A stretch of DNA of 48,313 nt, counting the filler, from Jimgerdemannia flammicorona (Eukaryota): NCBI GenBank assembly GCA_003990765.1. It is 2 parts of 2 records of this genome, joined end to end, with 100 filler letters (N's around TTAATTAATTAA, not from the genome) between each part and the next. Parts side by side here need not be neighbours in the genome. Positions count along the whole stretch, not along the records: positions 24,213 to 48,313 come from RBNJ01001021.1; 1 more part is not named here. The stretch is one strand, 5' to 3'. The position numbers were made by a program, and so were the translations under genes. The notes under the pieces were generated by a model, which ran no database searches, was not told the DNA's origin, and saw only the letters and a list, made by a program, of their open reading frames with translations. This document shows, piece by piece, positions 23,317 to 47,291 of this stretch. Numbering within the stretch: the stretch's first letter is position 1; every line of letters begins with the position of its first letter.

Positions 23317-24112
23317 TGTGGCATTCGGTTTGTACATATCTCTAGTTGCTTCTTGCACGGCTCAATGTGCCACTTGGTGAAGTGCGCGATGTATAACTGA
23401 AGGCATTGGTGATGTTTGCGGGTCGATGGTCATGTGATCGGTTATTTGATTCATGTGGTAATTGTTAATAGCAGGAGATCGTTTGATTGTTCAATGATGG
23501 TGGCTCAATTGTTTAGTGGATAAGGGTGGCGAATAACTTGGCGGCAAACTTGGCGACGGTCTTGATGGTCTTGCTCTTTATGCAGTCAATTAAAGCAGTC
23601 TGTGGCGCAGTAGGTCAGGAAAAAAAATGGAGGTTGACAGCTCGCTCATCCGTCTTGACTTGTTAACTTGGAAGGTTCCTGGCAGTCGTTCGAGTCTTTG
23701 GCAGCAGTCTTGTATCCTTTGGCTGGGTATCCTTAGGTTTCCAGGTCTTGAATCTCGAATGGCGGTCGAATGCGCGGTCTGAATGGTGGTCTGAATGTGC
23801 AGTCCAAATGCGCGGCGGTCATGGTCTAGAATCCTTGGCTGGGTCTCCTTGGGTTTCTGGGTCTTGAATCCTTGGCTGGGTCTTGGGTCTCGAATTGGCG
23901 GTCGAATGCGTGGTCCAAATGGCGGCAGTCGGGTAACATTTTCTTTCTTTCCATGGCAAGAGAAAATTCTTTAACTCAAACCTCAAGCGATCGTTGCTCT
24001 AGTTATCTTGTTCTCAGAATTTATCTGGTCTCTTGGAGGCAGTGGTTTCTTTGTAATCCTTTTTACTTTTAAACACAAACTGACTGAGGCTTTATTCACT
24101 CTAAGAATATGG
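23317..24112 (-). mobile_element. Probable LTR of a third, less decayed family (cut by the gap)
   Basis: Ends ...GCCACA on the minus strand at 23317 and carries AGAGTGAATAAA (minus, 24091-24102). Internal short duplications at 23715-23930. CpGs retained. Confidence 0.55.
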
Positions 24113-24212
24113 NNNNNNNNNNNNNNNNNNNNNNNNNNNNNNNNNNNNNNNNNNNNTTAATTAATTAANNNNNNNNNNNNNNNNNNNNNNNNNNNNNNNN
24201 NNNNNNNNNNNN
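24113..24212. other. Artificial assembly linker (44 N + TTAATTAATTAA + 44 N)
   Basis: Exactly 100 bp; the core gives stops in all six frames. Confidence 0.95.
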
Positions 24213-27200
24213 AAAAAAAAAAGGGAAGGAAAATCCAAAAGGAGCTGCTGGCAAAGCTGGGTGAGAGTAGAGCCGGTGGAGGCACAGGGGAGGGGGATGC
24301 AAGATTGCAGATGAGCACCTAGGCTGTGGGAGGCGAAAGGGCCCATAGTGGGGCTCAGGCTGAATTGGAGGAGGAGAGAGAAGACAGTATAGAGGCAGAT
24401 GCAGAAATGGGCAAAGGGGCATACCCTCAGTATAGTGTCCCAGATGGAGCTGAGGGGGAGGAGAAACTTCTGGATGTGCTAGATGAGGAGTGGGATGAGT
24501 CAGTGAGGAGGAGTACTCTGGTGGACCCAGAGGTAGATGGGGGGCAAATCATCCAGGGTACAGCAGAGGCAGTGGATGAGGAGAAATGGATGTGGAAGAC
24601 CCTAGAAGGGGTAGTGGCAGAGGAGCTAGGGGGAGAGGATTTCAGAGTTATGGAAGAGAGGAATTGGGAGGAAATCCTACAAGGGGAGAAGGTGCCAAGG
24701 AAGATGAGGAATGAGATCCTGGCTGTCCTCCTAGAGTCGGTTGAATATCAAGTCAATAATCAGAGAGAGGAGGAACTTAGGGAGATTGTGAGTGACCAGG
24801 TACTATACTTATGGAACTTGAGGAAGAGACTGGAGAAGTGATATACAGTCTGTATAAACTACTGGTCAGAAATAGAGATAGTGGATAGGGTGGAATGTCA
24901 GGAAATCTTGGAGGCACTGGATGCTCAGGCTAATGCAGAGGGTGACTTGGAAGCTGAATGGCGCTTGGATCTGGCTGGGGATGAGATGAGTATAGAATAC
25001 TAGACTGGGGTCTCAATTGCAACATTCTTTCAATATGAACAGTACAATTAGAATATTCTCTTTGAACATAAATGGGTTATGGGGGGCAGCTAGGAGGAAG
25101 CATATATTTGGATGGCTAAAGGGACTGGATGCAGACCTCTTTTTGTTGCAGGATATTTATTATGAGGCAGATGTAGATTTATAGGATTGGACTAAGGAAT
25201 GGGGGGGGGGTGGTAGTATGGAGGGGACAGGTGGGTATTCTTATTCGGAAAGGGATGGGGGACATTGGGGACATTGGACATTGGGAGTCTTGGGTGGTAT
25301 GAGGAGTGTGGAAGAGGCCTGGATGGGGCTTGTTGACAGTTGGGTCTTGCTACTACCCAGCTGATAGAGGGGAGAGAGTGAATTGGATTCGTGGGTTAAA
25401 AGAGTCTGGTGTCTTGGGTGAGGTTGGGTTGGACTGTCTGGGGGGTGACTTCAACATGGTATAGGATAAGGAGATGGACAGAACAGATAGAGGAAGTGGC
25501 ATGTGGAGTGAGAGTGGTGGGCTGGGTGACTGATTGGAGACAGAGAGATTGAGTTCTTTAGTGGACTTAAGAAGACAGTTTTGGGACAATTGGAAGATAT
25601 ACACTCACTGGGCAGCAGGGCTGGGCTCTAGAATTGACTGAGTTTTGACAGTAGAGTGCTGGGGAGCAGATATCTGGATGGCACTGGAGGTAGTTTGGTG
25701 TCCATGGTCTGATCACTGGGGGCTGCTAGAAGGGGGGAGGTTTGGGGGAAGTGAGGATGGGCCTGGATATTGGTGACTGAATTCTTCCTTATTGGAGGAT
25801 GGTGTTTTGTAGGAGGATTGGGAAAAGGAGGTTATTGAGAATATTGAAAGGTGGTGGGAACAGGGCTTGGGGATTGGGGACTGCTAGAGGAGACTGAAGG
25901 CAAATGCTCAGGAGTATTGGAGAGAAGCAGGGAAAGAAAGGTGTGCTCAATGATGGTGGTGGGTGCTGTGGGCCTTACAGCATCTGGCAGCACTCATGGG
26001 GAGATAGACAGGTGTGCTGGAGGATGGGGAGGTGACCAACTGGTATATTGGGAGGATCCATAAGAAGGTGAAGGAGCTTAAAGGAGTGTTACAAAGAGAG
26101 GAGGAAGTGAGGCTGCAGGAGATGGTAGCCCGGCTGCAGTGGCAGGGACTTGAGGAGGGGGAGAGGCCTACTAGGTTTTTATCATGGTTGTTACAAGCAT
26201 GATGAACAAAGCAGTGGTGGGAGGGAGTCCTGGATATGAATGGTGAGCTGGTGGTGGGAACTCTGGTGATTCTGGGTATACTGTGAAATCATTGGGAGAG
26301 TCTATAGAGTAAGAAGGAAGGTGGGGTGGATGCCTTGGACATTGAAAGGCAGCTGGGGGATTGGCACCCAAGCCCTGCAATAGGTCTAGGGTCTTTGGGG
26401 GACCCAGTGAGTGGAGAGGAAATCTGCAAGATTGTGGCCTCGGCGAGTAAGAGGACAGCTCTGGGGGAGGATGGACTTCTCTGGGATTTCTGGAAAAAGA
26501 TAGCTAGGGTGAGTGAGGTACTGGAAGAAATGACCACTATGTATAGTGAGGTTCTTCAGTCTGGTACTTGGATAGGGGGCCAATGCCTAGGGCTAGTCTC
26601 CTTACTCTATAAGAATAAGAGGAGGCAGGAAGATTGGAAGAACTGGCAGCTGATCATGCTACTCGATATGGACTGCAAACTGGTGATGAAGATCTTGGTG
26701 ATGAGGCTGCAAGGAATTGCTCAGCAAGTGCTGGGGGTGGAGCAGCATGGATTTGTCAGTGGCCAGTTGATTCAAGATGGGACAGCTTGGGTATATGGTA
26801 TGATTAAAGGTGCTCAGGCTATAGGGGTGGATGGGTGGTTGGTATTTCTGGATCAGGAGAAGGCATATGATAGAGTGCAGAGGATCTGGCTAGAGAGAGT
26901 GCTGAAATGGATTGGTATTTCCCTGGAGTTCTGAGGATCATTGATTGGCCTCTTGGAGAACAGTCAGGCTGCATTGGTCATCAATAGCCACAGGGGTGTG
27001 GCTTTTCCCCTAGGTCGTGGGGTGCCACAAGGTGACCCCTTGTCACCAATATTGTATGCCCTCTCCCTGGAGCCTCTACTGGACAGGATTCAGTATCGAA
27101 TCAGAGGTTTGGATATTCTAGGGATAAATTGGAAGGTGGGGGCCTTTGCTGATGATATGGTGATTGGACTGGGCTCCTTGGTGGATATGGGGGAGTTACA

Positions 27201-28781
27201 GCATTCTGTGGAATGGTATGAGAGAGGATCTGGTGCTAAACTAAACTGGCACAAATGTGAGACTCTGGTGCTGGGTGCTGGAATTATTAGTGATGATATA
27301 ATTGAGATAGTGGTGCCAGCTAGTGAACCAGTGCATTATTTGGAGATCTACTTCTCAGTGTTTGGATCTCTTCTTCCCTGTGCATAGTGAAGCCGACAAC
27401 TTCTGGAGTGGGGAAATGTTCTGCTGCGATGGGGAGGTTGGCATATGTCCTTGGCCAGAAGGGTGATGGTACTGAATGTATATTAGATACTGAAGCTGTA
27501 GTATGTGGGGTATCATTTGGATTTCCTGACCTGAGTGGTTCAGGGGCTATTGAAGATGGTGAGATCATGGATCTGGAGAGGGCAGTGAAGTCAGGTGGGT
27601 TGGGAGGTACTCACCCTGCCAGTGGAGAGAGGTGGGCTGGGCTTAGTGGACTTTACTAAGCAGCTTCATTGTTTGAGAGCTTGGTGGTTGAGGAGGGCAA
27701 GTGAGCTGAGGGGTCAGGAGTGGGTGCCACTTATACAGAGGGTGTGGGAGGTTTGGTATTCCTCTTGTGGAGACTCTGGTGACCTGCTTGTGATGGTGGC
27801 CATGGATGGGGACAGGAGGATGAGGTTCACAGACTTCTGGTGGGGGGTGGTAGATAGTGCTAAGAAAATTGAACTTCGGTGGTGAGGTGATGAAGCAGAG
27901 GAGGATTGGGGACTGCAGATGTGATGGTGGGACAGGCTTTTACTGGGTGGTGTTCTGGTGGAGGATTTCCAGCTTGGAGAGGGTATGGAGTACCTGTAGG
28001 GCTTGAGGGGAGACCTGTGGCCCGAAGCCTGGCAGAGGGTTGGAATTGGTGAGGAGTGGGATTGGAATGGACTCTGGCTTTGGAGCAAGCAGATGAGGCA
28101 GTGGCTGTCCCCCAAGTTCTAGGTGGTGTGGTGGTGAGTCCTATGGTGGAATGTGATGTTGAACTATCAGTCTGGGCACTTGGTGGATGGTGGCATATTT
28201 GAGTGTGAGGAATGTTTCAATATTGGTCAGGAGGGTAGAATGGTACAAATGTCTGAACATTGGCTTAGTGAGTGTGAGGTTTTGGAGGAGTTTTGGAGAT
28301 ATATCATGGACCAGTTAGGGCTGTGTGCCCTGGAGGGGGGGGAAGGGGGGAGATGGGGAGAGCTCCACCAAAGACTGGTCGGTAGAGTTGGGGATGAATG
28401 GCTGACCCTTGGCTAGGCTCTGGTCATGTGGATTGGGTTAGTTGGGCATTGGGTACATGTATTTGAGAAGGGTCAGCAGGTGGGGGTTGGGGACAAGGTG
28501 ACACATTGGGAATGATTATTACTGGACATTTTGAATGGCTGGTAGTGAGGGTGGGGGCTGGGTAAGGGGAATTACAGGGGTTTGGTACAGTGTATCTCCT
28601 GGAAGAGTGGTGGGAGGATTCAGGTGGTGGGTGACTGGGTTGTACTCAGGCAGGGGGAGGTTGAGGGAGTAGGGATAGGTCCACAGAGTATTGGTTGAGG
28701 GTTTGGAGTGACATTGTATTGTTAGAATTATAGATGGTAGTAATAAAGGGCAGTCCAAGTGACTTAAAAAAAAAAAAAAAA
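24213..28781 (+). mobile_element. Degenerate L1/Tx1-like LINE (ORF1 tail + ORF2 APE-RT-CCHC) with poly(A)
   Basis: APE motifs LLQD, GGDFN, SRID, SDH; GPGYW*LNSSLL; EGERPTRF. RT motifs QHGF, FLDQEKAYDRV, RGVPQGDPLSP, FADD; then GGLGL and C-terminal CEEC..EHWLSEC. AATAAA at 28742-28747 and A-tail at 28766-28781. Confidence 0.93.
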
Positions 28782-30174
28782 GATATCTAATATCAGCTCT
28801 TTTAGAACTAAACTGATTGTCTTATATTGTATAGTAAATTTATCTCATTATTATAGAGATGATCAGATCAATACAATTAGTTTGTGTAGCTTAGAAATAA
28901 TACTCAGAGTTCCTTCACTTCTAGATATTTTATCTATACATAAGATACTTCTGAATAGTAAGATTTAGTATATGGGTCTGATAATATATATAGCAGTTTT
29001 CTATACTGAAGGCTATATTTTCCTATTGAAGGCTTTGCTAAATTTTAGAAAAATATTGAATTATTTGTAGCATTATCTATCATAATGGTCAAAATCTGTA
29101 CTTGAAATTTTCAGTTAGCAAATTTATATAAAAATAAATAACTATTAAAATCTGGTTTGTTTTAAGACCTCTCTCAAAATGCCAACCAGATAGCAAGCCC
29201 CCTCTTTTTATCTTGATTATAATTCCAAGCTCCCAAATATAACTAATAAAATATCTGTAATGTTTTCTTCAGAATGAGAATCAGTAAGTTTAATAAAGTC
29301 AAGAGTAAGAGATTTAAGTTGCTAATTAAGATCAATCTAATAACTAGTAATACCCAGAAATAAAATTGTATTAAAGAATATTTATATATCAATTATAAAT
29401 GAAATTCTACCTACTAAATTCTATTTATTGAATGTGAGATTAAATTGATAAACTATATATATATATATTATTTAGCTTGCAATAGTTATAGTATTGCTCT
29501 TATTTATTTATTTTATCTAAAGTGTCTAGTAAAGATTATTATACTCCTTCCTATAGGCCTCCAGAATATCTTTGTGAATAGTATCAATATTTAGCAAATA
29601 TAAATCATACTTGAGGAGGTTAAAGATACTATACAATTAGTTATTCTTAATAGTTATGAATAGTTGGTCTATATATACAATTTAGCAAATGAGTCAATTT
29701 TGAAATTCTGCTAAAGAATATGATTAAATATTTTTAATTAAATAGAGTTATTAATATAGAAATAGTTAAGTAATTAGATAAATATACTTACCATCGCTTG
29801 GATATTGATTTTATTTATTTTTGTATTCTTTTTAATTTTGTTAGAGTATTTTGTCTTTTATATATAATATATATTTAAAGTTGAACTACTAAGTATTTTG
29901 AACTTCTAGCTATATAGTATAAAGAGATTGGTAGAAATAATATAATATATATATCAAATAAAAACATCAGTTATATTATAAATATATCTTCTTTTTTAAT
30001 TTTTTACCTATAATAATTATAAATAATATTATCTTCAGTCTTAGTATAATATTATCAGATTTTGGAATGAGAATTATATAGAAGGTATAGAGCTATCAAG
30101 AATATTTAACTTGAAATATTATCAGTACTATGAATTATTGAAGACTGATCTATTGACATATATGTTTATATATT

Positions 30175-30208
<34 letters not shown>

Positions 30209-30597
30209 TATATTTATATATTATATATATAGACATATTGAATATATGAGTCATGTAGAGAATTTGGATTAGAGAATTTAAATTAAAGAATTCAGATTAG
30301 ATGATTCAAATTAAATAATTCAAATTGAATAATTCAGATTAACTAATTTAGATTAAATAATTCAGATTGAATAATTCAGATTGAGTAATTTGAATTGAGT
30401 AATTTAGATTGAGTAATTCAGATTAAGTAGTTCAGATTGAGTAATTTGAATAGAGTAATTTGGATAGAGTAATTTAGATAGAGTGATTCAGATTAATCTA
30501 AGTTAATTCAGATTGTTTCAGATTTGAGATTTGGATCAAACTATCATATAATGAATTGAATTAAGATTTGATTTGAATTAACTTATTTAAAGTACTA
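28782..30597 (-). mobile_element. 5' part of a highly decayed hAT DNA transposon
   Basis: Minus strand ~29420-29255 reads GRISFIIDI*IFFNTILFLGITSY*IDLN*QLKSLTLDFIKLTDSHSEENI, matching the hAT transposase SFTTDxW..FLGIT.HWID..HSGENI region. Terminus TAGTACTT at 30597, with subterminal repeats. Confidence 0.8.
30255..30500. repeat. 14-bp subterminal tandem repeat (GATTGAGTAATTCA, ~17 copies)
   Basis: Clear 14-bp periodicity at 30351-30495. An adjacent (TA)n-rich tract lies at ~30165-30232. Confidence 0.9.
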
Positions 30598-33194
30598 CTG
30601 GCAGATAATAATAAGTATTTGAATATCTTAAGATCTATTTGATCCAAGTATCTATCTTGAAAAGATCTGACTGATCTCAAAAGTTTATTCTATAAATAGA
30701 TATAAGCTCAATTGAACTAAGAGCAGTCCTTGTATAAAAGAAAAATAAAGTCAAATATGTGGTTATATATCTCAGTTAAAAAACTCATAAAGGAGAAAGA
30801 GAATATGAATTCTATAAGCTAGAGTATCTTATAGTTATTTAGACTATAGAAAAGTTTCACTACTATCTTATTAGAAGATACTTTACTATTCTGACTAATT
30901 ATTCAGCTCTTACCTAGTTGTTGACCACTAGTCAATCTAAAGGAATATTTATTAAATAGATTATAAAACTATAAGCTCATAATACAATCATTATATACTA
31001 TTTAGAAAGAATCAATACTAATATAAATATACTTGTATAGATACTCTGAAAGACTTATAATTAGTAAAACCAAAATGAATAAGAAACTTTACTATAGAAT
31101 TATCACCTATCTGAAATAGTAAAAGATGTCTCAATACTTAAAAGAATAGATATAAATAATTATCAACAAAAGCTAGAAATAATTCAAAACTGATAGAGAA
31201 ATACTAAAGAAAGAAAAACTACTAGTTATATCAGAATATAAGAAGAAATAAATAATGAAATCAATATATAAACTTAGCCATTTAAGAGAAATAAATACCT
31301 ATGACAAAGTAAGAAGAATAATATAGTAGTCTGAAATAGAGAAAGATATCAGATGATTTGTTAAGATCTGTGACAAATATTAGAAACAGAAGTAAGATTA
31401 GTAAAACCAGATACCAGAATCAGCAGATATAAAATTAGTATTATTTATCTATATTATAATAAATATAATTAGCCTACTACTCTTGATATTAACTAATAAC
31501 TAATATATTATTATTATTATAGACCTCTTTATAAAATAAATAGAAGCAGAATCCCTTAAAGAAGCTAATGTATAGTTAATTGCTAATTTTTTCTATAGAA
31601 AAATCATCTGTTAATTTAAGATACTAAAGTAAGTAACAATAGATAGAAGAATAGAATTTATGAATCAGCTCTTTGAGGTTCTATATAAGAAGTATAAAAT
31701 TTAGCATATAGACTAAAAAGATCAATAATATATTCAAAAGTATTATTATTAAGATCTGTAATAATTATAAGAATTAGAACTACTATTTATTAATTGCATT
31801 ATCTGTTCTCTAGAATATATAATTACAAAATACTCATTTCATCTCTTGAGAATTACTATTTAGAGAAGAAAGATCTGAAAGAACTCTATTATTCAATAGA
31901 GATACAATATGGAAATATATAAATACTGAGATATAAAGATTGTATTAAATAAGAAAAAAGGCTAAAGATTATATAATTAAGATATAAATATTATAATAGA
32001 ATAATATAGAGATGATTTACAAATCCTTGGATTATTAAGATATATAGGAGAAAAAGTCCTAGTATATTAGAATATAGTGAAAACTTCATAATTATAAAAA
32101 CTAAAGCCTAAGTGAGAAGGATCTTACCTTGTGTAAAATATAAAAAAAACTATTTTTTGACTATAAAAACTATTAGATATAATCATCTTTACTATTATCT
32201 ATTAAAATCAACTTAAGAAGTATTATGACTAATCAACAAAGTATTACTCTGGTTCTCAAAATTACAAATATTATATAGTGAGCTATAAAAAGACAATAGT
32301 GTTCCACTGAGCTACCAATTATAGAGAAATTCTTTAATAATATTTAAAGTATTATACAGACCCATCTATCATAAATTTCATACTTTTAAAGTCTACCAAT
32401 ATCATGCTGAGTTTTAAAAGTACTTCAAGTTAGAGAAATTACTAAATAAAAGAAATATAACTAAAGAAGAATAGATTGTAGAGTGTCAGATATCCTATAC
32501 CCAGATCACTATAGCCAAGCAGATTTATAAATTATTTAAAAATAATAAGCAAGCTCTAGTCTATTTTCAAGAAGTAGTTCCAGAAGATTTCTAATAGGTA
32601 AAAAAAAAAACATTATTGGGAGATAAAATTAAGTAGATTATATAGTATAAGAATATATAATTGGTCAAAGTATAAGAGTTTGAATAAGATAATTCAGAGA
32701 TCAAATTACTTATTTAGAAAAAAGTTATAATAGTTGATCCAAATTAGAAATAATAATTAGAGAATAGATATTTGATTATGATATTTGAATCTGATTCCTA
32801 ATATAATATAGCATTATAGTTTAGTAGTCACTCAATCTCTCAGTTATATAATTTATACTATATATTATATGAAAAGCACAGATCTTAACTATATAGATTT
32901 TACAGATATATAAATCTCTCAACTGTACAAAATGACTTATAAAAAAAGAAATCATAGCTTAATCACTATATAGCTAGTAAACTTGTATAAATATTTTTAG
33001 TATCTAGAATAAATAAATAAATCTCAGATCAAAATAGTTTAAACAAAGAGACAAGAAACTAGTAAGCCTGCAAGCAGATATACTTTAAACTCATCCACCC
33101 CTATATCTAAGAACTCTGAGAAGTCAAAGAAGATTAAGTATTCAAGATAAAGAAATCTGCCACACTTCTGCTAGTATATATCCACTATATTACA
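30598..33194 (+). mobile_element. 3' half of a second family-1 Gypsy copy (RNase H-INT-ORF3-LTR), very AT-mutated
   Basis: Colinear with 5803-8419. 3' LTR at 32726-33194 ends TATTACA. Begins exactly at the hAT terminus. Confidence 0.9.
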
Positions 33195-33446
33195 TTATTT
33201 ATAAAAGTAAGAAAATTAATATATATAATAATCTTAATTTTATCATATAAATATATAATACTTTATATAGTTTTAATATAGAAGAGATTTAGTTTAATCA
33301 GTTATAAATTCTTTTACAAAGAATAATCTAGTGTGTGAACCCATCATGGCTGATGCTGTTGTGAGAATACAAATAGAAGATGAACAAACAGATCATTAGC
33401 TAATTTCCTTACACAGACACACAATGCTCACACAGTTTTGACATAC

Positions 33447-36400
33447 TTTAGAGATTCAGTTCGTCGTGTTCTGCTTCAGAGACTCAGCTAGGAGGCGCTC
33501 TCCTTCCTTGCTAATATTATTCACTTTAAAATGAACAAGGGATGAAAGAACACGCATAGATGATTGGCTTGATCCCATCATACAGTCACATACAATGCTT
33601 CACACAATACTGACATACCAAAGAGATCGGTCAAGGTCGTGTTGTGCCTCAGAGACTCGGCTAGGGCACGTGCTCCCTCTTCGCCAATATAATTTCCTTT
33701 AAAATGAACAGGAGATGGACGGACCATTAGCTTGATCCCATCATGCAGCCATACACAATGCTTCACACAGTTCCAACATACCATAGAGATCTAGCCCGGT
33801 CAAGGTCGTGTTCTGCTTCAGAGACTCAGCTAGGGCGCATATACCCTCCTTGTGAATTTCATTCCCTTTAAAATGAACAGGGGATGGGCAGTTCATTAAC
33901 TTAATTATGTCACACAGCCGCGCACAATGCTCTACACAGTTCTGACATACTTTTGAGATCCAGCTCGGTCAAAGTCGTGTTCTGCTTCAGATACTCAGCT
34001 AGGGCGCATGCCCCCTCCTCGCCAATATTATTATCTTTAAAATGAACAGGAAATGAGCGAACATGCGCTCGATTCCATCACACAGCCGCACACAGTTCCG
34101 ACATACCAGAGAGATTCAGCTTAGTCAAGGTCGTGTTCTGCTTCAAAGACTCAACTAGGGCGTGTGCTCCCTCCTTGCCAATATTATTCACTTTAAAATG
34201 AACAGGAAATGAGGGAACACGCACAGATCGTTAGATTGAACACAATGCTTCACACAGTTCCAACATACAAGAAAGATTCAGCTCGGCCAAGGTCGTGTTC
34301 TGCTTCAGAAACTCGGCTAGGGTGCATGCCCCTTCCCCGCCAATACGATTCCCTTTAAAATAAACAAGACAGGAGCGAACACGCTCAGATCAGCTTGATT
34401 CCATCACGCAGCCGTACACAATGCTTCACACAGTTCCGACGTACAAGAGATATTCAACTCGGTCATGGCCGTGTTCTGCTTTAAAGACTCGGCTAGGGTG
34501 CGTGCTCCCTCCTTGCCAAAATAATTCTCTTTAAAATGAATATGAGATGAGCGAACTCGCACCGATCGTTAGCTTGATTCCATCACGCAGCCGCACACAA
34601 TGCTTCCCACAGTTCCAACATACTTTCGAGATCAAGCTTGGTCAAGGTCGTGTTCTGCTTCAGGGACTCGGCTAGGGCGCATGCCCCCTCCTCGCCAATA
34701 TTATTCCCTTTAAAACGAACAGGGGATGAGAAAACACGATTACATTACGCAGTCGTACACAATGCTTCATACAGTTCCGACATACTTCTGAGATTCAGCT
34801 CGGTCAAGGTCATATTCTGCTTCAGAGACTCAGCTAGGGCGCGTGCCCCCTCCTTGACAATCTCATTCTCTTTAAAGCGAATGCGCGAACACGAACATGT
34901 CGTTAGCTTGACTCCACCATGCAGCCGTAAACAATGCTTCACACAGTTCCGACATACCAGATAAATTAAGCTCGGTCAAGGTCGTATTCTGCTTCAGGGA
35001 CTCGGCTAGGGCGCGTGCTCCCTCCTCGTTAATGTTATTCGCTTTAAAGCGAACAGGGATGAGTGAATATGCACAGATCGTTAGATTGATTATATCACAC
35101 AGCCGCACACAATGTTTCACACAGTTCCGACATACCTTCGAGGTTCAGCTTGGTCAAGGTCGTGTTCTGCTTCAGAGACTCGGCTAGGGCGCGTGACCCC
35201 TCCTCGCCAAAATTATTATCTTTAAAATAAACAAGGTGTGAGCAGACATGCACAGATTGTTGGCTTGATTCCATCACGCAGCCGCATACAATGCTTCACA
35301 CAGTTACGACATACTTCCGAGATTCAGCTCGGTCAAGGTCGTGTTCTGCTTCAGAGACTCGGCTAAGGCGCGTGCCCCCTCTTCGCCAATATTATTTTCT
35401 TTAAAATGAACAGGGGAGAGTAGACACGCATATATCGTTAGGTTGATTCCATCATCAACCGCGCACAATGCCTCACACAGTTCCGACATACTTTCGAAAT
35501 TCAGCTCGGCCAAGGTCGTGTTCTGCTTCAGAGACTCGGCTAGGGCGTATGCTCCCTCCTTGCCAATAATATTCCCTTTAAAATGAACAGGGGACGAGCG
35601 AATGAGCACTGATCGTAAGTTTGATTAAATCACACAGCCGCACACAATGCTTCACACAGTTACGACATACTTCCGAGATCCAGGTTGTTCAAAGTTGTGT
35701 TCTGCTTCAGAGACTCGGCTAAGGCGCGTGCCCCCTCCTCGCCAATATTATTCCCTTTAAAATGAGCAGGGGATGAGCGGACAAACACACATATTCCATC
35801 GTGCAGCCACACACAATGCTTCATACAGTTCCAACATACAAGAGAGATTTAGCTTGGTCAAGGTTGTATTCTGCTTCAGAGTCTCGGCTAGGGCGCATGC
35901 CTCCTTCTCGCCAATCTTATTATCTTTAAAATGAACAGGGGATGAACAACCCATTATGCAGTCACACACAATATTTCACACAGTTCCGCCATACCAGAGA
36001 GATTCAGCTTGGTCAGGGTCGCGTTCTGCTTCAGAGATCCGGCTAGGGTGCTTGTTTCCTCCTCGCCAATATTATTATCTTTAAAATGAACAGGGGATGA
36101 GAAAATACACATATCGTTAGTCTGATTACATCATGCAGCCGCACACAATGCTTCACACAGTTCCGACATACCAGAGAGGTTCAGCTTAGTCAAAGTGGTG
36201 TTCTGCTTCAGAGACTCGGCTAGGGCGCGTGCCATCTCATCGCCAATATTATTTCCTTTAAAACGAACAGGGGATGAGCGAACATGCACTGGTCATTAGT
36301 TTGATTCCATCACGCAGCCGCACACAATGCTTCACACAGGTCCGACATACTTCTGAGATCCAGCTTGGTCAAGGTCGTGTTCTGCTTCAGAGATTCGACT

Positions 36401-38352
36401 AGGGCGCGTGCCCCCTCCTTGCCAATCTCATTCTCTTAAAACAACAGGGAATGAGCGAACACGCACTGATCGTTAGTTTGATTCCACCACACAATGCTTC
36501 ATACAATTCCGACATACCAGAGAGATTCAGCTCCGTCAATGTCGTGTTCTGCTTCAGAGAGACGGCCAGGGCGCATGCCCCCTCCTCGCCAATATTATTC
36601 TCTTTAAAACGAACAGGGGATGAGCGAACACGCACTGATCGTTAGTTTAATTCCATCATGCACCGTACACAATGCTTCACACGGTTCTGACATACCAGAG
36701 AGATTCAGCTTGGCCAAGGTCGTGTTCTGCTTCAGAGACTCAGCTAGGGCGAGTATCATCTCTTCGACAATGTGATTCCCTTTAAAACGAGCAGGAAATG
36801 AGCGAACACGCACTGATCGTTAGTTTGATTCCATCACGCAGCCACACACAATACTTCACACAGTCCCGACATACAAGAAAGGTTCAACTCAGTCAAGGCC
36901 GTGTTCTGCTTCAAAGATTCGGCTAGGGCGAGTACCCCCTCCTTGTTAATGTTATTCACTTTAAAATGAACAGGGGATGAGCGAACACGCACTGAATCGT
37001 TGGTTTGATTCCATTATGCAGTCACACACAATGCTTCACATAGTTCCGACATACCTCTGAGATTCAGCTCGGTCAAGGTCGTGTTCTGCTTCAGAGACTC
37101 GGCTAGGGCGCATGCCCCCTCATCTTTAATATTATTCCCTTAAAACGAACAGGGAATGAGCGAACACGCAATGATCGTTAGTTTGATTCCATCACGTAGC
37201 CGTACACAATGTTTCACACAGTTCCGACATACCAGAGAGATTCAGCTCGGTCAATGTCATGTTCTGCTTCAGAGATTCGGCTAGGGCGCGTGCCCCCTCC
37301 TCGCCAATGTTATTATCTTTAAAATGAACAGGGGATGACCAAACACAAACTGATCGTTAGCTCAATTCTACCATGCAGCCGCACACAATGCTTCACACAG
37401 TTGCAACAAACATTCGAGATTCAACTTGGTCAAGGTGGTGTTCTGCTTCAGAACCACGGCTAGGGCACGTCCTCCCTCCTCACCAATGCTGTTCACTTTA
37501 AAACGAACAAGGGATAAGCGAAGTTAGCTTGATTTTACCATGCAGCCGCACACTATGCTTCACACAATCTTGACATACAGCAGAAACTCAGCTCGGTCAA
37601 GGTCGTGTTCTGCTTCAGAGATTCGGCTAGGGCACATCCCCCCTCCTTGCCAATTTCATTCGCTTTAAAACGAACAGGGGATAGTGAACACGCACAGATC
37701 GTTAGTTTGATTTCACCGTGCAGCCGCGCGCAATGATTCATACAGTTTCGACAAACCTTCGATATTCAGCTCGGTCAAGGTCGTGTTCTGCTTCAGAGAC
37801 TCGGCTAGGGAGTGTGCCCCCTCCTCGCCAATATCATTGTCTTTAAAACGAACAGGGGGTGAGCGAACACGCACTGATCATTAGTTTGATTTCATCACGC
37901 AGCCGTATACAATGCTTCCAGTTCCGACATACGTCTGAGATTTAGCTGGGTCAAGGCCGTGTTCTGCTTCAGAGACTCGGCTAGGGCGCGTGCTCCCTCC
38001 TCGCCAATATTATTCGCTTTAAAATGAACAGGGGATGAGCGAAAGCGCACAGAACATTAGCTTCGACGCTTCACACAGTTCCGACATACATCTGAGATTC
38101 AGCTTGGTCAAAGTCGTGTTCCGCTTCAGAGACTCGGCTAGGGTGCGTGCCCCCTCCTTGCCAATACTATTCACTTTAAAATGAACAGGGGATGAGCGAA
38201 CACACACAGAATATTAGCTTGATTCCATCATGCAGCCACACACAATGTTTCAGACAGTTCCGACATACCAGAGAGATTCAGCTCGGTCAAGGTCATGTTC
38301 TGCTTCAGAGATATGGCTAGGGCGCGTGTTCCATTCTCGCCAATCTTATTAC
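33447..38352 (-). repeat. Tandem array of 29 exon+intron units (155-180 bp period)
   Basis: Each unit is an 84-nt LRR exon plus a homologous 71-96-nt intron (GTATGTCGGAACTGTGTGAAGCATTGTGTG...CTAAC...CCTGTTCATTTTAAAG). Confidence 0.97.
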
Positions 38353-40682
38353 CTTTAAAACAAAGAGGATATGAACAAACACACACAGGTTGTTAGCTTG
38401 ATTCCATCACGCAGCCACACACAATGCTTCACACAGATCTAACATACTAGAGAGATTCAGCTCCGTTAAGGTCTTGTTCTGCGTCAGAGACTCGGCAAAG
38501 ATTCCGGCCTCCTCGTCGTCAAAGTCGTTCTCTGAAGTTGAACAGTGAATGAGGAACGCGCGCATATTGCTGAGCATGATTCTATCAGACAGCTCTGACA
38601 TACCACTAATATTCAGTTTCGTCAAGGTCCTGTTCTGCTTCAGATACTCAGCTAATGTACGCGTGAACAGAATTCCAATGCCGTTTTCTGATATAATCAT
38701 CAAAAAAAAAAAAAAAAAAAAAAAAAAAGTGAGCATAGCAAGAGAATACACCCGCTCCAACGTACCAGCCTCAAACAATATTTGATAGAAATGTTGGCGC
38801 ACTGGTGAGATCGAGCTTGATCACGTTTGTGTTATGCTCCAGAAATTGAACGAGAATGCTCGCTTCTCTATCGTTAATGTTCCATCCTGAACATGACAGG
38901 AGATCAGTAGATAGAAATATATAACAATCTTAATTTCCTATCAACAATAGTTTACATATTTCTGGCATACCAAATAGATTCAGCTCATGCGAGGTCGTGT
39001 ACTGCTCGAGACGTTCGGCTAGAATGCCTGCCCCTCCGCCGCCGGCTGTATTTTCTTAAGATAAATGGAGAGTGATTAGTTTCGACCAAATTATTGGATG
39101 GTACGGCTGCAAAACAATGGTTCGCACAATTCTGACATACGGGTTGTGTTCTGTTGCTGAGGTTCAGCGAAGTCGCTGGGCTCACCCAAGCCGGCGCTTA
39201 TCTCTGAGTGATTAGAAACTATAAACTGGTAAGCAATTGTGGTAGGCCAACCCTGCAGTTGTATCCCTCATCGGCGGAAAATGTGAATACTGAACCATGT
39301 AACCATATCGCTACGCACCTGAATTTGGCTGACGACTAAGACTTTCAAGCACCGCTCGCGAGTGATGTTCTGTAATTTTCTGGAGACGTTCGCTTGTGTA
39401 GAATTTGCTTCCGCCATGGAAGGCGCTCACTCCATCGAATAATTCGAAATCGTCGTTGGTACTGCTATCTTCCAGCTCCTGCTGATGTATGACCCGTCGA
39501 TTATCAATGAACGATTGCGTCTCCGGCGAAAATGGTACCCTCGCCATTGCAAGTGCTTTTAAAACTTGACTTTCCGCGTTTTGTGGCAAGGAAGGAGGAA
39601 TGTAGGCTAAACCAGCTGCACATTCGATCAAATGATCGTAGACTTCACGGGCGCTCGGTCGCCGGTTAGGGTCGAGGTGCCAGCAACTCCGAATGATATC
39701 ATTGTATGCTGTGGGCGCACCAGGGATCAGCTCCTCGCGAAGGCCATCTGGTCCCCTGGCGACAGCATACATTGCGTCGCCATGGGGTGGGACGCCGACG
39801 ACAAGCTGCCACAGCAGAGTTCCCAAGCAGTACACGTCCGATTTCTGTGTATACGGCTTGTTCTCGAACATCTCTGGAGGGAGGTATTCAAGCCGGCCAT
39901 AGACGCCTTCTTCGGGATTTTCTTGTTCTACAGAACGGCTAAGTCCAACATCGATCAAGAGTGTGGTGTGTGACTTGTGGAATACTACGTTGCCTGCGTG
40001 GAGATCCTGATGGCAGAAGCCCATATCGTGAAGACTGGCCAAGCGGCTGGCAAGTTTTATGGCATATGTCAAAGCGGTGTACCAATTACCATCTTGTTCG
40101 CAAGGCTGCTTTTCGAGAGTGCCAATGTCAGCCAATTGCATGATCATCAGATACTCTTTGGTAATGGGGTGTTTTGACAAAGCAACAATTTTCATCGTAG
40201 GGGGATTGCTGGTGTCATTTCCGCAGTAACTCAAATAAATATTCAGGACTAACTGTGTCGGTGGGATAAAGAAACAGCAAATTTACTGGAAATGTAAGTT
40301 TCCTGGAAAATAATTGTATGTATATACACCAACGAGAACTCACTTCTTCGGCCATTGACAATTTCAATTCTTTAGCGGCCACCTTGTAAGTAGTGTTAGA
40401 TACCGAAACGTCTGCCCGGTAAACTTTTGCAAACCCGCCTTGGGCAAGCAGCTCCAAGGGTTTGAGTTCCCAGGGCTGAAGCCAGGTAAGGTATGGCTCC
40501 AGCGGTGACACACCCAAGGCGACGAGGCAGGCACGAAGTTGCAGGCTTTCATTCAATTGATTGTTGAATTTTTGGGAATTTCGATTCTTCCATACCAAGA
40601 TTTCTGTTTGGTGGGCTCTGTTTAGTTGGTCCCAGGGCTTGATTCGGCCCAGCAAGTCGTTCGGGCGGGTTGTGGCGGACAT
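33456..40682 (-). CDS. TKL-like protein kinase fused to ~33 RI-type leucine-rich repeats (36 predicted exons, ~1361 aa)
   Basis: Exons 40682-40344, 40252-39319 and 39203(or 39218)-39141. Then 84-nt exons starting at 39054, 38886, 38687, 38531, 38352, 38173, 38016, 37840, 37662, 37495, 37316, 37138, 36958, 36779, 36601, 36434, 36255, 36078, 35923, 35754, 35575, 35398, 35219, 35041, 34869, 34707, 34528, 34352, 34190, 34034 and 33865. Then a 78-nt exon 33696-33619 and a last exon from 33523 to TGA at 33458-33456. All introns are GT-AG and the frame is open throughout. Kinase motifs: QGGFAKV, VAAK, HQDLHAGN, DVG, YLPPE, SDVY, CW..DP..RP. LRR consensus: NNIGEEGARALAESLKQNTTLTELNLSx. Confidence 0.85.
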
Positions 40683-43149
40683 GATGTTTGATTTCTGAGC
40701 GATTACTTTCTTTCTGTGATTTTATGTGGCGATCAAATCACATGCAGACCTCAGCCTCAATCTCCTGACGTTCTTTCTTGAGTAATCACGTTCTCCTGAC
40801 GAGCTGAGGCATTTTAGGATGGCCAAATCGAGATCGCGAGTGTTAGACGCACATCGTTTATTATTAGGACAATGTCCTTTGGGGATTGGGTATACCACGC
40901 GAAAATCATATTAACATCCTTGTTTGTTTCTTCTCATACTCGAGGACCGCACAAAACCGCCGACCACCGAAAATGCTAACTGGCTCACCATCCTGGACAG
41001 CACCCGAACTACAATCAGCACAACAACCCGCTAAAATTTCCGACGCCAAAGACCCCAATTCCGACGTTTGGCCGATGGATCATCCGTCGATGGGTAATGA
41101 GGCGGCTTGCAGGTGGGGTCGAGCCGGGTCGGTCGCTAGGAGCCGGTTTTGTTCGCGAGATGTCGATCCTCTCCAAGGGTCCTACGGCTGCTGTTGTGCG
41201 ACATTACCCGTTTATTAGGAAAACGATTTACTGGCCATAAGTCCTACATAATTATATAATAGTATTGCAGTAAACCTTCCTTCGCTCCGCCAAAGATCAC
41301 GATTGCCTCGTGTATAATGTCCCTTGGTTGTTGCCCGAGCGTGATCATCAATCACGTTCGGACATTACCCATCTTTAAGCAAGACATTCGGACATTACCC
41401 ATCTTTAGCATTGGGAATGGTCACGTGGGGTTCTGCACGTAACGCGGCAACTCTTACATATTTCATAGTATTAATTAGGGAAACTTGTATAAGTGGATGT
41501 TTGCTGATGGTGTGTATCGTCTTGTGCACAGAACGAGTCGTGGCGTAACCACGTGATCACGCGCATCGAAGGTTTTCTCCCGAATAAAGGCAAATATTGG
41601 TATATATACACTACGAATTAGATTCCAACAAGACGGATTGGCTCCAACAGGCCGATAAAAGCAAAAATCCTGAAATGTCCGGTCAGGCGATCAAATTAGG
41701 TTTTGCCGAGTCGTTCGAAATACTATCTGCACCCCTCACATCCAACCAGTACTCCAAGATATCTGGATTAGACATGCAGTCCTCCGTGGCAGATGATGAA
41801 AATAAAAACACCATCCTCATATTTATTATTAAAAAAAAAATGGACAACCAGTGATAACATTGTTTCAACCGTGACGCAGTCCATCTGTGACCTCTTCTGG
41901 TAACACCCTACTACTATCCAATGCTTACCTATCTCGGCGCCTCTGGCCTCGAATCACATCCTTGAACGCTGTCAGTGACCGCGAACACTGCGGTACAATG
42001 CTCGCGGATAGGACTTGTGAAAGTGGAAATCTCGGAGAATATTTCAGGTCAACGATCAATGCGTTTAGCTCCTCGTACCACCACATTCCTGCTGCTTTGT
42101 ACTCCCTCTTCGAATCGCGCTGCGCTTGAGCTTCAGCACGTAAGCAGCGCCACAGTGCGAAAATTGGCTAGTTCATGGTTGCGTGAAGTGGGTCATTTTT
42201 GAGTCCGAGGACCATGCCGATTGCCCGCCGTTCGTATTAATCATTTGTCACTACAGCAGAGTCTTTAGAGCGGAGAAAATGGAATCCCAGCAAAGGAATC
42301 TTAACGGAAGGGGTCTCATTGATGGGGCCACCATATGATGATTTCCAAACCTCTGCCCTAATTTGCGTTTGCTTTCGTCATAATGTTTCAGACCTGACGT
42401 AATTTAACCGCCCTCTGCCTCATTCTCTCTTATTGTTTTCCCACATCTTAACAGACTCGGTCGACAAACGTTGGATATGGTTTCTCTTGTGAATTACAAT
42501 TAAGCGTGTACTTGGCGTGGTGTGAAGTTTCCTTTTACGAGGCGCGAGTGCGCCTGTCTTGGTTGCCCCTTGAGCAAGGGCGAAACCGGTCTAGGTCATA
42601 GTTACACTAGTTACACTCCATAGCTTTGTATCTGTAATATATACGATTTTTTAAAAATATAAAATATTGAAAGCAACCCAAGGGGAAAAGAGATTGTTAC
42701 GTCGTCCTGAACGTGTCACGCAACTCTGTCACGCTTCCAACCTAATGCACCTATTCTCCGAGCTCTCCACACACCCGTGCCACCGCATCACACACACGGA
42801 CTCGCCAGGGATCGAGGTACCTTACGACCGCAATGATTGGCCGCAACTGCCAATCCGGACTGCGCCAGAACGTGAGGTACGACATTGCCGAGGTACGTGC
42901 GGGACACGGTAGGGGTGGACGGGAGTCGTATGCTTTTGAGGGGGAGGTACATCGAAGTGGAGCGTTGTTCCCTGTTCGGCCGTTGGAAAAGTAGGTGGGT
43001 TTACCAGGTGGCCGAAGTTGAGGCTTGGCATGTATAGGTGGCCTCCCCGCCACTCCTGCCATTCCAGCACACCGCACTCACCCCCCCTTTACAGAATAAC
43101 GAATCCAATAGCTACCCTGTCTACTACGGTTATCAGCCTCGGCCAGCTG

Positions 43150-43452
43150 TATGCCATGCTATGAACAAGAGGCACCTCGAGGTTGTGAACTTGCTCTTGG
43201 CCAACTCCAAAGCGGACGCCAACGTCAGGCAAAAAGAAGAATTACGCCGCTTCTCTTCGGGCATGTTGATATTGTGAGGTTACTCTTGGCCGACTCCAGG
43301 GCGGCCGAAAAAGGATGGATGGACGGCGCTTCACTTGGTTGCGCAGAATGGGCACGTCAAGGTTGTGAGGTTTTTGGCCGATTCCAAGGCGGACGCCAAC
43401 GCCAAGACAAAAGAAAAGGAGCGACTTCGCTGCGCAGAACGGGCACGTTGAT
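43150..43452 (+). pseudogene. Ankyrin-repeat fragment, frameshifted
   Basis: HAMNKRHLEVVNLLLANSKADAN / GHVDIVRLLLADS / WTALHLVAQNGHVKVVRFLADSKADANAK / AQNGH, in shifting frames. Confidence 0.8.
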
Positions 43453-43588
43453 CATCAAAAATTTATTGTATAAATGAATATACTAAACTAATTATTATCA
43501 GGCGACCTCGGAAGCGTGGAGGTTGTGCGAAGGGGATAATGAATGATAACTCTCTCTCCCAACTTCGTTGTGCCACAGGCGTACATGA

Positions 43589-45751
<2,163 letters not shown>

Positions 45752-46887: not shown

Positions 46888-47291
46888 ATGTCTCATGTGT
46901 CTCAAGAATCTCATGATCAGGTCTTTGGCACAGAAGCCCACCAAGTGATTATCCCCCGTAACTTTTTCACACTTATGATTATGATGATTCTCAAAATCTA
47001 AAGCTAATTCAACAACCTTCATTCCTTCCTCCATAGCACAAGGCCAAATGGTCTCACGAGCTGATTGGTGGTGCCGCCGCTTTCGAGGCCATGAAGGCGT
47101 ATGAGGACCACCAGGCGAAAAACGGCAAGCCCGACGACCATGCCCTGGCCAAGGAAATCTTTGCCGGTTTGGCTGGTGCCGCCATCGACCGTCTTGTCGA
47201 AACCAAGGGCCTCGACGCCATCGAAGCTGCTAAGGCCAAGCACCACGCCAAGAAGCAGACTGATAGCATCTACAACGAGAAGTTCGCGTAA
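46888..47291 (+). CDS. cipC: CipC-like (DUF3759) small protein, 2 exons, 103 aa
   Basis: Exons 46888-46944 and 47037-47291. HKAKWSHELIGGAAAFEAMKAYEDHQAKNGKP..HALAKEIFAGLAGAAIDRLVETKGLD is the family signature. Confidence 0.88.

Follow-up and report, generated by a model that had tools for sequence, protein, structure and literature searches.

We analysed a window of 48,313 nucleotides, filler included, that joins two parts of two records of the Jimgerdemannia flammicorona genome (GenBank assembly GCA_003990765.1; positions 24,213 to 48,313 come from RBNJ01001021.1). On its minus strand lies a gene of 36 exons, 40682..33456, which encodes a 1361-residue protein in which a protein kinase is followed by leucine-rich repeats (LRRs) carried one to an exon. 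Read as its reverse complement, the stretch 33300-41300 opens with a kinase-coding segment and continues as GC-rich blocks alternating with GTATGT...TTTAAAG blocks, and Tandem Repeats Finder reports a 179-nt period over 34240-38496 with 78-81% matches. The gene is real and is spliced as an initial annotation of this DNA had proposed. It is an expressed gene of an Endogonales-like fungus and encodes a soluble kinase-LRR protein; its long array arose by tandem amplification of a 179-bp exon-plus-intron cassette, and purifying selection has since preserved its open frame and its splicing. Comparison of the units indicates that divergence at three exon-edge codons has far outpaced that of the introns.

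Splicing was assessed with X1 and X2, two small public runs of one organism, labelled 'RNA? (a guess)', which contain about half of the sampled words of 38250-40750 and whose contigs were compared with 38250-40800. Both runs contain the same six GT..AG skips on the minus strand (40343-40253, 39318-39204, 39140-39055, 38970-38887, 38603-38532 and 38447-38353), and X1 shows a seventh junction, 38269/38173: a contig has a loose end at 38269, and the 30 letters beyond it are those of 38144-38173, where the next exon begins. The joint from kinase to LRRs runs from 39319 to 39203 in contigs of both runs and skips 115 nt with GT..AG ends, so the CAG/GTGCGT donor at 39319/39318, where exon 2 closes with one codon base, is in use. 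The kinase-bearing stop-to-stop frame spans 39311..40282 (minus strand), and the initial annotation had claimed that its apparent stop at 39311 is bypassed through this donor; the joint bears this out, and together with six further junctions it contradicts the idea that transcripts end after that stop. Contig depth is 5-17 in intron bins versus 31-180 in exon bins, and the long contig pieces listed match the proximal part of the gene without any mismatch. Contigs that lack seven introns at canonical sites and match free of mismatches are most simply complementary DNA (cDNA), which establishes splicing from the kinase into the LRR exons. The junction over the poly-T intron 38802-38688 is absent from the joint list, the poly-T run having been skipped in the comparison. 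Sequence constraint on exons 10-36 suggests that they are likewise included in the messenger RNA (mRNA).

Two more loose ends, at 38272 and 38273, have continuations without a match in the window at up to 3 mismatches, and summed depth reaches 23,000-44,000 in the bin with the first consensus-like exon; we read these together as many expressed paralogous LRR exons elsewhere in the genome of that organism. Exon skipping inside this gene was considered for the two loose ends and set aside, their sequences not being in the window. The non-canonical joints, a 159-nt skip with TA..AG ends and two that go back 40, look like repeat-induced assembly artefacts or paralogues.

The gene model (Table 1) was obtained by a phase-aware walk starting at the kinase exon, with exons found by an AG + 84 nt + GT pattern search, and was corrected by the RNA-like contig joints. 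The automatic walk had put exon 3 at 39266-39186, a placement ruled out by the RNA joint that sets it at 39203-39141.

Table 1. Parts of the kinase-LRR gene from its 5' to its 3' end (window positions)
Feature	Position	Strand	Length (nt)	Remarks
Exon 1	40344..40682	-	339	ATG at 40682 (first ATG of the open reading frame)
Intron 1	40253..40343	-	91	GTGAGT..CAG, phase 0; joint 40252/40344 in X1 and X2
Exon 2	39319..40252	-	934	Remaining kinase domain and ~110-residue linker; phase-1 end
Intron 2	39204..39318	-	115	Contains the apparent stop 39311 of the naive open reading frame
Exon 3	39141..39203	-	63	Phase 1-1; degenerate, shortened LRR-like unit; both flanking joints in X1 and X2
Exons 4-7	39054-38971, 38886-38803, 38687-38604, 38531-38448	-	84 each	Diverged LRRs
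Core tandem array	33782..38352	-		27 units: 84-nt exon + 71-96-nt intron, period ~179 nt
Core array exon starts, units 1-14	38352, 38173, 38016, 37840, 37662, 37495, 37316, 37138, 36958, 36779, 36601, 36434, 36255, 36078	-		
Core array exon starts, units 15-27	35923, 35754, 35575, 35398, 35219, 35041, 34869, 34707, 34528, 34352, 34190, 34034, 33865	-		
Exon 35	33619..33696	-	78	Phase 1-1; LRR shortened in frame by 6 nt
Exon 36	33456..33523	-	68	Terminal coding exon; ends in TGA 33458-33456

Exon 1 encodes about 75 residues without a family match and then the start of the kinase N-lobe, with its glycine-rich loop and beta-3 lysine. Its N-terminus can be aligned to three database proteins (P0001, P0059 and P0061), and RNA-like contigs cover 40344-40659 of it; the N-terminal 80 residues have no Pfam match and no atlas match at or above 0.9. 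The donor of exon 3 and the start of its intron resemble the array introns, and exons 4-7 are separated by unrelated introns (84, 115 and 72 nt). Exons 4-34, from 39054 down to 33782, comprise 31 exons of exactly 84 nt with one LRR each. All 33 internal exons of the LRR region are phase 1-1 and free of stops in the coding frame, and 31 of its 34 exons have a length of exactly 84 nt. The initial annotation had counted these exons exactly, and its '33 LRR exons' are the 63-nt exon, the 31 exons of 84 nt and the 78-nt exon, with the terminal exon uncounted. The other two frames meet stops in almost every 84-nt exon, and the coding frame reads as a stop-free 27-residue LRR segment. In the last unit, loss of bases has shifted the frame onto the terminal TGA, and a relic GTATGT donor lies past the stop codon at 33446. 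The span first annotated ran on to this relic donor (its end, 33447, lies 9 nt beyond the TGA on the minus strand); the gene itself ends at 33456.

The first domain belongs to the protein kinase superfamily, with profile scores above the curated cut-offs for exon 2 alone (PF07714, 88.2 bits, cut-off 23.1; PF00069, 82.4 bits, cut-off 31.7). The beta-3 Lys, the catalytic Asp, the catalytic-loop Asn and the Asp of the D-F-G motif are all present: the kinase retains the residues that catalysis requires. Gln replaces Arg before the catalytic Asp (H-Q-D, a non-RD kinase) and D-V-G replaces D-F-G, and both replacements recur across the family. The Arg position of H-R-D varies across the family, and all 11 sequences in the alignment have H-x-D-L-H-x-G-N and D-V-G. 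Kinases of the non-RD class have been linked to pattern-recognition receptors.

A Pfam scan of exons 1 and 2 gave no match to NACHT, NB-ARC, Roc or COR, and everything downstream is LRR. No transmembrane segment is found by Kyte-Doolittle hydropathy, the highest 19-residue mean being 1.08, inside the kinase, and the N-terminal 30 residues are hydrophilic (mean -0.62) and not signal-peptide-like, in agreement with the cytoplasmic protein that the initial annotation had envisaged. With no NACHT or NB-ARC, no Roc-COR, no transmembrane helix and no hydrophobic N-terminus, the protein is therefore not a NOD-like receptor (NLR), a ROCO/LRRK protein or a plant-type LRR receptor-like kinase. The central NACHT or NB-ARC NTPase that marks NLRs and other signal transduction ATPases with numerous domains is missing, as is the Roc GTPase with COR that marks ROCO/LRRK proteins, and the LRRs here are C-terminal to the kinase; LRRK proteins have the opposite order, with LRRs before the kinase. 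Plant-type receptor-like kinases carry a signal peptide, N-terminal extracellular LRRs and a single transmembrane segment, features that this protein lacks, its LRRs being C-terminal and of ribonuclease-inhibitor (RI) type. By analogy, a kinase-LRR protein of this kind may work like the sensor part of an NLR.

The repeat is 28 residues long, with N2, L12, L16, K17, N19 and L25 invariant in the 27 units of the core array. Two single LRR exons match LRR_6 (PF13516) at E 6.5e-5 and 1.5e-4, their 23.1 and 22.0 bits lying slightly below the cut-off of 23.4 since an exon on its own offers one repeat, truncated at the exon border; the initial annotation had called for kinase and LRR_6 profiles, and both find their domains here. 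The LRRs, about 33 in number, are of the RI type. Three positions are hypervariable among the 27 units, corresponding to x7, x8 and x10 of the L-x-x-L-x-L-x-x-N motif. Position 28, the last full codon of the exon, shows 7 different residues; position 1, whose codon is split by the intron, shows 13; and position 3, directly after the invariant Asn and the third codon of the next exon, shows 9.

Nucleotide diversity is 0.18 in the introns and 0.21 at third codon positions; at codon positions 1+2 it is 0.15 in ordinary codons versus 0.58 in the three hypervariable codons. Framework codons have a ratio of nonsynonymous to synonymous divergence (dN/dS) of 0.27 (Nei-Gojobori) and are under purifying selection. 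In the hypervariable codons dN reaches 1.18, against an array-wide dS of 0.32 and an intron Jukes-Cantor distance of 0.21, and this nonsynonymous divergence, several times that of the introns, supports the diversification among repeats that had been proposed from the outset. Among exon substitutions outside the hypervariable codons, 53 of 183 (29%) fall at 6 CpG sites, as in the Arg/Cys/His alternation at position 10, and these hot spots hint at cytosine methylation or deamination acting on the repeat. The CpG observed/expected ratio of the array exons (33782-38352, minus strand) is still 0.91 overall despite them.

To place the hypervariable residues we used a single-sequence AlphaFold model of P0001, an Endogone relative described below, and only for strand positions in its LRR part (predicted local distance difference test, pLDDT, 60-77). 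There the beta-strands span the five residues just before the exon border. Since the strands end at the border, one hypervariable residue closes the strand and the other two flank the conserved Asn of the next loop. LRR proteins usually contact ligands through strand-end and following-loop positions, and positions 28, 1 and 3 would accordingly sit on the binding face. The array would then present a few hypervariable, positively selected positions on that face, as located by this moderate-confidence model.

Constraint on the array is seen in the contrast between its exons and introns. The introns of the 27 units vary from 71 to 96 nt, with 20 of the 27 differing from the modal 95 nt, and 23 indel events were counted in 2387 aligned intron nt versus none in 2268 exon nt (21.9 expected; Poisson P ~3e-10). 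No stop is observed in the 27 exons, a stop-free outcome reached in 0.26% of 5000 simulations (P = 0.0026) in which the consensus exon was mutated at the intron substitution rate, 10.6% from consensus. Splice sites are intact at 27 of 27 donors and 27 of 27 acceptors, and in most array introns a CTAAC-type branch-point motif lies some 44 nt from the acceptor. These patterns indicate that the array exons are translated and under selection, and are not decaying copies. Units are on average 81% identical at the DNA level (range 72-90%), the nearest relative of a unit is usually non-adjacent, and in many variable columns the minor alleles are common to at least three units. At the protein level 9 of 351 pairs reach at least 85% identity. 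An old burst of cassette amplification with subsequent divergence would account for the array, and its genealogy may have been obscured by recurrent CpG change and/or short conversion tracts. The introns showed no relic exons.

All named relatives of the gene come from Endogonales (10 of 33 matches are named, the others being unnamed metagenome open reading frames, ORFs, with up to 69% identity), and no protein identical to the product was found in the database searched, which suggests that the genome of the window is not annotated in it. The best long relative is P0001 (BC937DRAFT_86469 of Endogone sp. FLAS-F59071, 769 residues, annotated 'hypothetical protein'), which is 57% identical over the kinase exon and belongs to the same family, with the same order of conserved N-terminus, non-RD kinase, linker and C-terminal LRR_6 repeats (112.8 bits). 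Kinase-LRR proteins in related fungi had been expected, and P0001 is one; it differs in that its repeats are diverged, number only about 11 and form no long homogeneous array. Its best matches in the PDB are RI-like proteins, ribonuclease inhibitor, NOD2 and NLRPs, and LRRC34, DRC5 and RanGAP are also among its matches there. The other named relatives are kinase-only or kinase-fusion proteins of Endogone sp. FLAS-F59071 and J. flammicorona. In one of them, P0002 (Endogone sp. FLAS-F59071, 719 residues), an N-terminal, caspase-like Peptidase_C14 domain precedes a kinase of the same family; the catalytic loop of this kinase reads H-S-N, without the catalytic Asp, and it may be a pseudokinase. 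Four of the seven metagenomic ORFs in our alignment (A1) stop two residues beyond the position of the window's phase-1 donor. As many database relatives are kinase-only and several ORFs end just past this same donor, such genes are probably under-annotated.

A metagenome scan returned 29 loci; the close relatives among them are L001-L004 alone, all on contigs of 1.5-1.8 kb. A GT donor stands at the phase-1 donor site in all three close loci that could be read there (L001, L002 and L004), and the match of L003 runs to the contig end. Only L004, from a soil metagenome, extends to LRR exons: behind its kinase exon come three exons detected by script (54, 84 and 90 nt) and one of 84 nt counted by eye, all phase 1-1 with one LRR each. 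At kinase third-codon positions it is 62% identical to the window gene. Because L004 shares the exon-per-repeat layout, this design predates the split of the two fungi. In the last intron fragment of L004 (1437-1508), the final 38 nt are 76% identical to the window's array-intron consensus; the alignment scores 31, against a maximum of 22 in 200 shuffles, and the first four introns of L004 show no such resemblance. The L004 contig probably ends there because its assembly was interrupted where an array of its own begins, and on this resemblance the array cassette itself probably also predates the split.

A representative-protein search with P0001 gave 136,898 matches at E <=0.001, dominated by giant LRR_6 proteins. 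None of 20 proteins scanned (18 of the 150 listed, taken by identity and similar length, plus P0017 and P0021) had a kinase, a sample that is uninformative on the spread of the kinase-LRR fusion. Some of the 20 carry NACHT, TIR, HEPN, RCC1 or Roc-COR domains. In P0017, P0021, P0188, P0189 and P0222, LRR_6 arrays 41-45% identical to that of P0001 stand behind NACHT, Roc-COR, TIR or HEPN_DZIP3+NACHT; if any of these five were fungal, they would be LRR-bearing NLR-like proteins.

The window also carries decayed sequence. Over about 5 kb at 24000-29000 (plus strand) the GC skew is +0.41 to +0.55 and the plus strand is very C-poor with long G runs; RVT_1 matches at 26308-27387 lie in broken reverse-transcriptase frames, and the region looks like a degraded retroelement with strongly strand-asymmetric base loss. 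N gaps occupy 24113-24156 and 24169-24212. At 3454-5035 and 14682-15686 (plus strand) broken frames encode fragments of retroelement aspartyl protease and two distinct dUTPase-like segments (PF00692, best E 2.3e-13), which belong to degenerate, dUTPase-carrying elements of long terminal repeat type. Directly past the 3' end of the gene, 29000-33000 holds 4 kb at 21-23% GC with AT-rich microsatellite-like repeats, compared with 47-50% GC in the gene. On the other side of the gene are a PhyH dioxygenase exon at 44471-44695 (minus strand, E 1.1e-19), a DUF3759 protein fragment at 47037-47291 (plus strand, E 1e-35) and weak ankyrin-like frames at 43038-43477 (plus strand, E 0.023, below the cut-off).

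One repeat per exon, uniform exon length and one symmetric phase characterise exon-modular LRRs, and all three are found in the window gene; L004 shares the design. Comparable designs are known outside fungi. Hoss et al. (2019) report that in most human NOD/NLRC genes each frame-preserving exon encodes a single 28-residue RI-type LRR and that the exon border keeps to one place in the beta-sheet (PMC6642158). The fungal gene resembles these vertebrate genes in repeat type, in having one 28-residue repeat per frame-preserving exon and in a border in or at the beta-strand; it differs in that the vertebrate proteins have a NACHT ATPase instead of a kinase and far fewer repeats. Both homology and convergence of the two sets of exon modules are possible.

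In the brown alga Ectocarpus, 'type I' LRRs of ROCO genes lie on single 72-nt symmetric exons that permit shuffling (Zambounis et al. 2012, PMC3341825; follow-up in PMC11378527), and the same source, in the passages considered, reports no shuffling in Ectocarpus LRR-kinase genes. Shared with the fungal gene are one fixed-length symmetric exon per LRR and the standing of candidate receptors with positively selected sites. The algal exons differ in being 72 nt long, in encoding plant-like 24-residue LRRs N-terminal to Roc-COR, and in leaving relic LRR exons in introns and on the opposite strand, of which none was seen in the fungal gene. Tetrahymena, by its published description (PMC6564038), has LRR exons by the tens of thousands, each exactly 90 bp long, together with phase-2 introns and some kinase fusions. 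It is similar in its equal-length exons, uniform intron phase, 'junction' amino acid shared by two exons and occasional kinase fusions, and differs as a ciliate with 90-bp exons, phase 2, 30-residue units and exons numbering tens of thousands genome-wide.

Among fungi, Dyrka et al. (2014) describe NLRs without LRRs, whose internally conserved WD, ANK and TPR repeats have positively selected sites (PMC4986451). These too are intracellular receptor candidates with similar tandem repeats and few hypervariable surface positions; they differ in that the WD40, ANK or TPR repeats stand behind NACHT or NB-ARC and are unsplit by introns. The window array, at a mean of 70% protein identity, stays below the >85% repeat identity over at least 100 residues by which that study, in its part on repeats, recognises conserved arrays. 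Passages of surveys of fungal immune-receptor candidates likewise list WD40, ANK, TPR or HEAT repeats and no LRRs (PMC4986451, PMC12258605). Mollicutes-related endobacteria have taken up kinase and LRR genes from their Mucoromycota hosts (PMC10507103); that work concerns kinase/LRR proteins of Glomeromycotina and Mortierellaceae, so the architecture had already been noticed in the phylum, and such proteins are plausibly relevant to the interplay of host and endobacterium. Endogonales genes lie outside its analysis, and its passages at hand are silent on exon structure and repeat arrays. In the literature covered, which leaves out many subscription-journal papers and supplements, we came across no fungal account either of LRR arrays with one exon per repeat or of this kinase-LRR family. 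The initial annotation had suggested that the modular array itself might be new; the modular design is already known from vertebrate NOD/NLRC, brown-algal ROCO and Tetrahymena genes, and what appears undescribed is its occurrence in a fungus, fused to a kinase.

Our results are probably best explained by an intracellular LRR-sensor kinase whose solenoid grew by amplification of exon-plus-intron cassettes and whose presumed ligand-contacting residues were diversified under selection. The LRR solenoid would form a ligand-binding sensor surface with specificity residues that vary from repeat to repeat; ligand binding, or release of an intramolecular contact between LRRs and kinase, would switch the kinase, which would relay the signal onward. 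Such a receptor kinase would be analogous to the LRR sensor of animal NOD/NLRC proteins, wired to a kinase in place of a NACHT ATPase, and the architecture would point to an immune role. Because an intron splits the most variable codon, an unequal crossover or an exon skip keeps the frame and makes a new residue there; the new residue would be a consequence of the design, as distinct from an observed event.

Several observations weigh against this explanation. The proposed function is read from the architecture of the protein. The RNA label of X1 and X2 is a guess, cDNA origin being taken from the missing introns alone, and the joints reach only the first eight exon junctions, leaving exons 10-36 without RNA coverage. 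On their own synonymous sites the three hypervariable codons have a local dN/dS of only 1.5, because those sites are few and themselves very variable; the stronger contrast takes introns and array-wide synonymous sites as its neutral standard. These codons adjoin splice sites, where a local mutational effect is possible. A second tier of variable codons (5, 6, 9, 10 and 24) has a dN/dS of 3.2, a value for codons chosen after the fact and inflated by CpG transitions. The P0001 model is poor overall, with a mean pLDDT of 45.9. Finally, the array gives no sign of ongoing turnover: protein identity is low, no pair exceeds 89.8% in DNA, and identity is flat with distance along the array (0.819 for adjacent units versus 0.805 at 20 units). 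Distance matrices of exons and of adjacent introns are uncorrelated (Mantel r 0.02-0.06, p >=0.33), a result that fits a star-like burst as well as shuffling. With no unit pair above 90% identity, recent reshuffling is not shown; of the cassette-wise reshuffling proposed in the initial annotation, it is the frame-preserving design that is supported.

A rival explanation is an ordinary signalling or scaffold kinase, in which the LRRs bind a conserved endogenous partner or autoinhibit the kinase and the variability reflects relaxed constraint and hot spots after a one-off expansion. The absence of recent duplications and of distance decay, the mean repeat identity of merely 70% in protein, the modest local ratio at the three codons and the explanation of much of the moderate variability by CpG transitions all agree with it, and RI-type LRRs are common in non-immune proteins, with LRRC34, DRC5 and RanGAP among the PDB matches. 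Relaxed constraint, however, lifts diversity only to the neutral level of the introns and not to 0.58, and CpG decay leaves 7-13 residues per hypervariable codon unexplained. That these codons fall at the strand end and in the next loop, where ligands are as a general rule contacted, further argues against a scaffold, as do the restriction of the family to one lineage, its many paralogues, including the caspase-domain fusion, and the position of the locus among degraded retroelements and AT-rich DNA. We regard the scaffold kinase as unlikely, though still deserving weight.

A shorter or variable protein, with constitutive proximal LRR exons and distal homogeneous exons variously skipped or outside the main mRNA, seems distinctly improbable. 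RNA evidence does end at 38269/38173, in a comparison that covered 38250-40800, any skip would preserve the frame since all exons are symmetric, and skipping of modular LRR exons is documented for human NLRP3 (PMC6642158). Yet all 27 distal exons keep length, frame and splice sites while the introns gain indels, which would be hard to account for if they were rarely translated, and the sole non-canonical joints resemble artefacts or paralogues. Expansion or mis-joining of a short repeat by the assembler is scarcely credible: tandem repeats are error-prone in assemblies and the window has two N gaps, though at 24113-24212, far from the gene, but each unit is unique, at 72-90% identity to the others and with its own intron indels, the gene interior has no N gaps, and long contig pieces of two runs match the proximal part without mismatch.

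Returning to the LRR-sensor kinase, its deeper origin can be framed more speculatively. The 84-nt symmetric RI-type LRR exon with its single repeat might be the same ancestral cassette as that of animal NOD/NLRC genes, a sensor module of the opisthokont ancestor surviving in early-diverging fungi, an idea we hold to be rather a long shot. Were it true, Endogonales would have plugged the module into a non-RD kinase and their relatives perhaps into other effector domains, and fungi would not have lost LRR-based innate receptors uniformly. The split codon would also let recombination or exon skipping create specificity residues, in populations or among coenocytic nuclei.

In summary, in a plant-associated lineage of early-diverging fungi an expressed family joins a kinase to RI-type LRRs, which serve as sensors in animal NLRs, and so resembles a kind of intracellular sensor seldom attributed to fungi. 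If the sensor interpretation is correct, this family would offer an entry point to how Endogonales handle endobacteria, plant hosts and other non-self, and could help to tell whether modular LRR exons are an ancient inheritance or arose by convergence.

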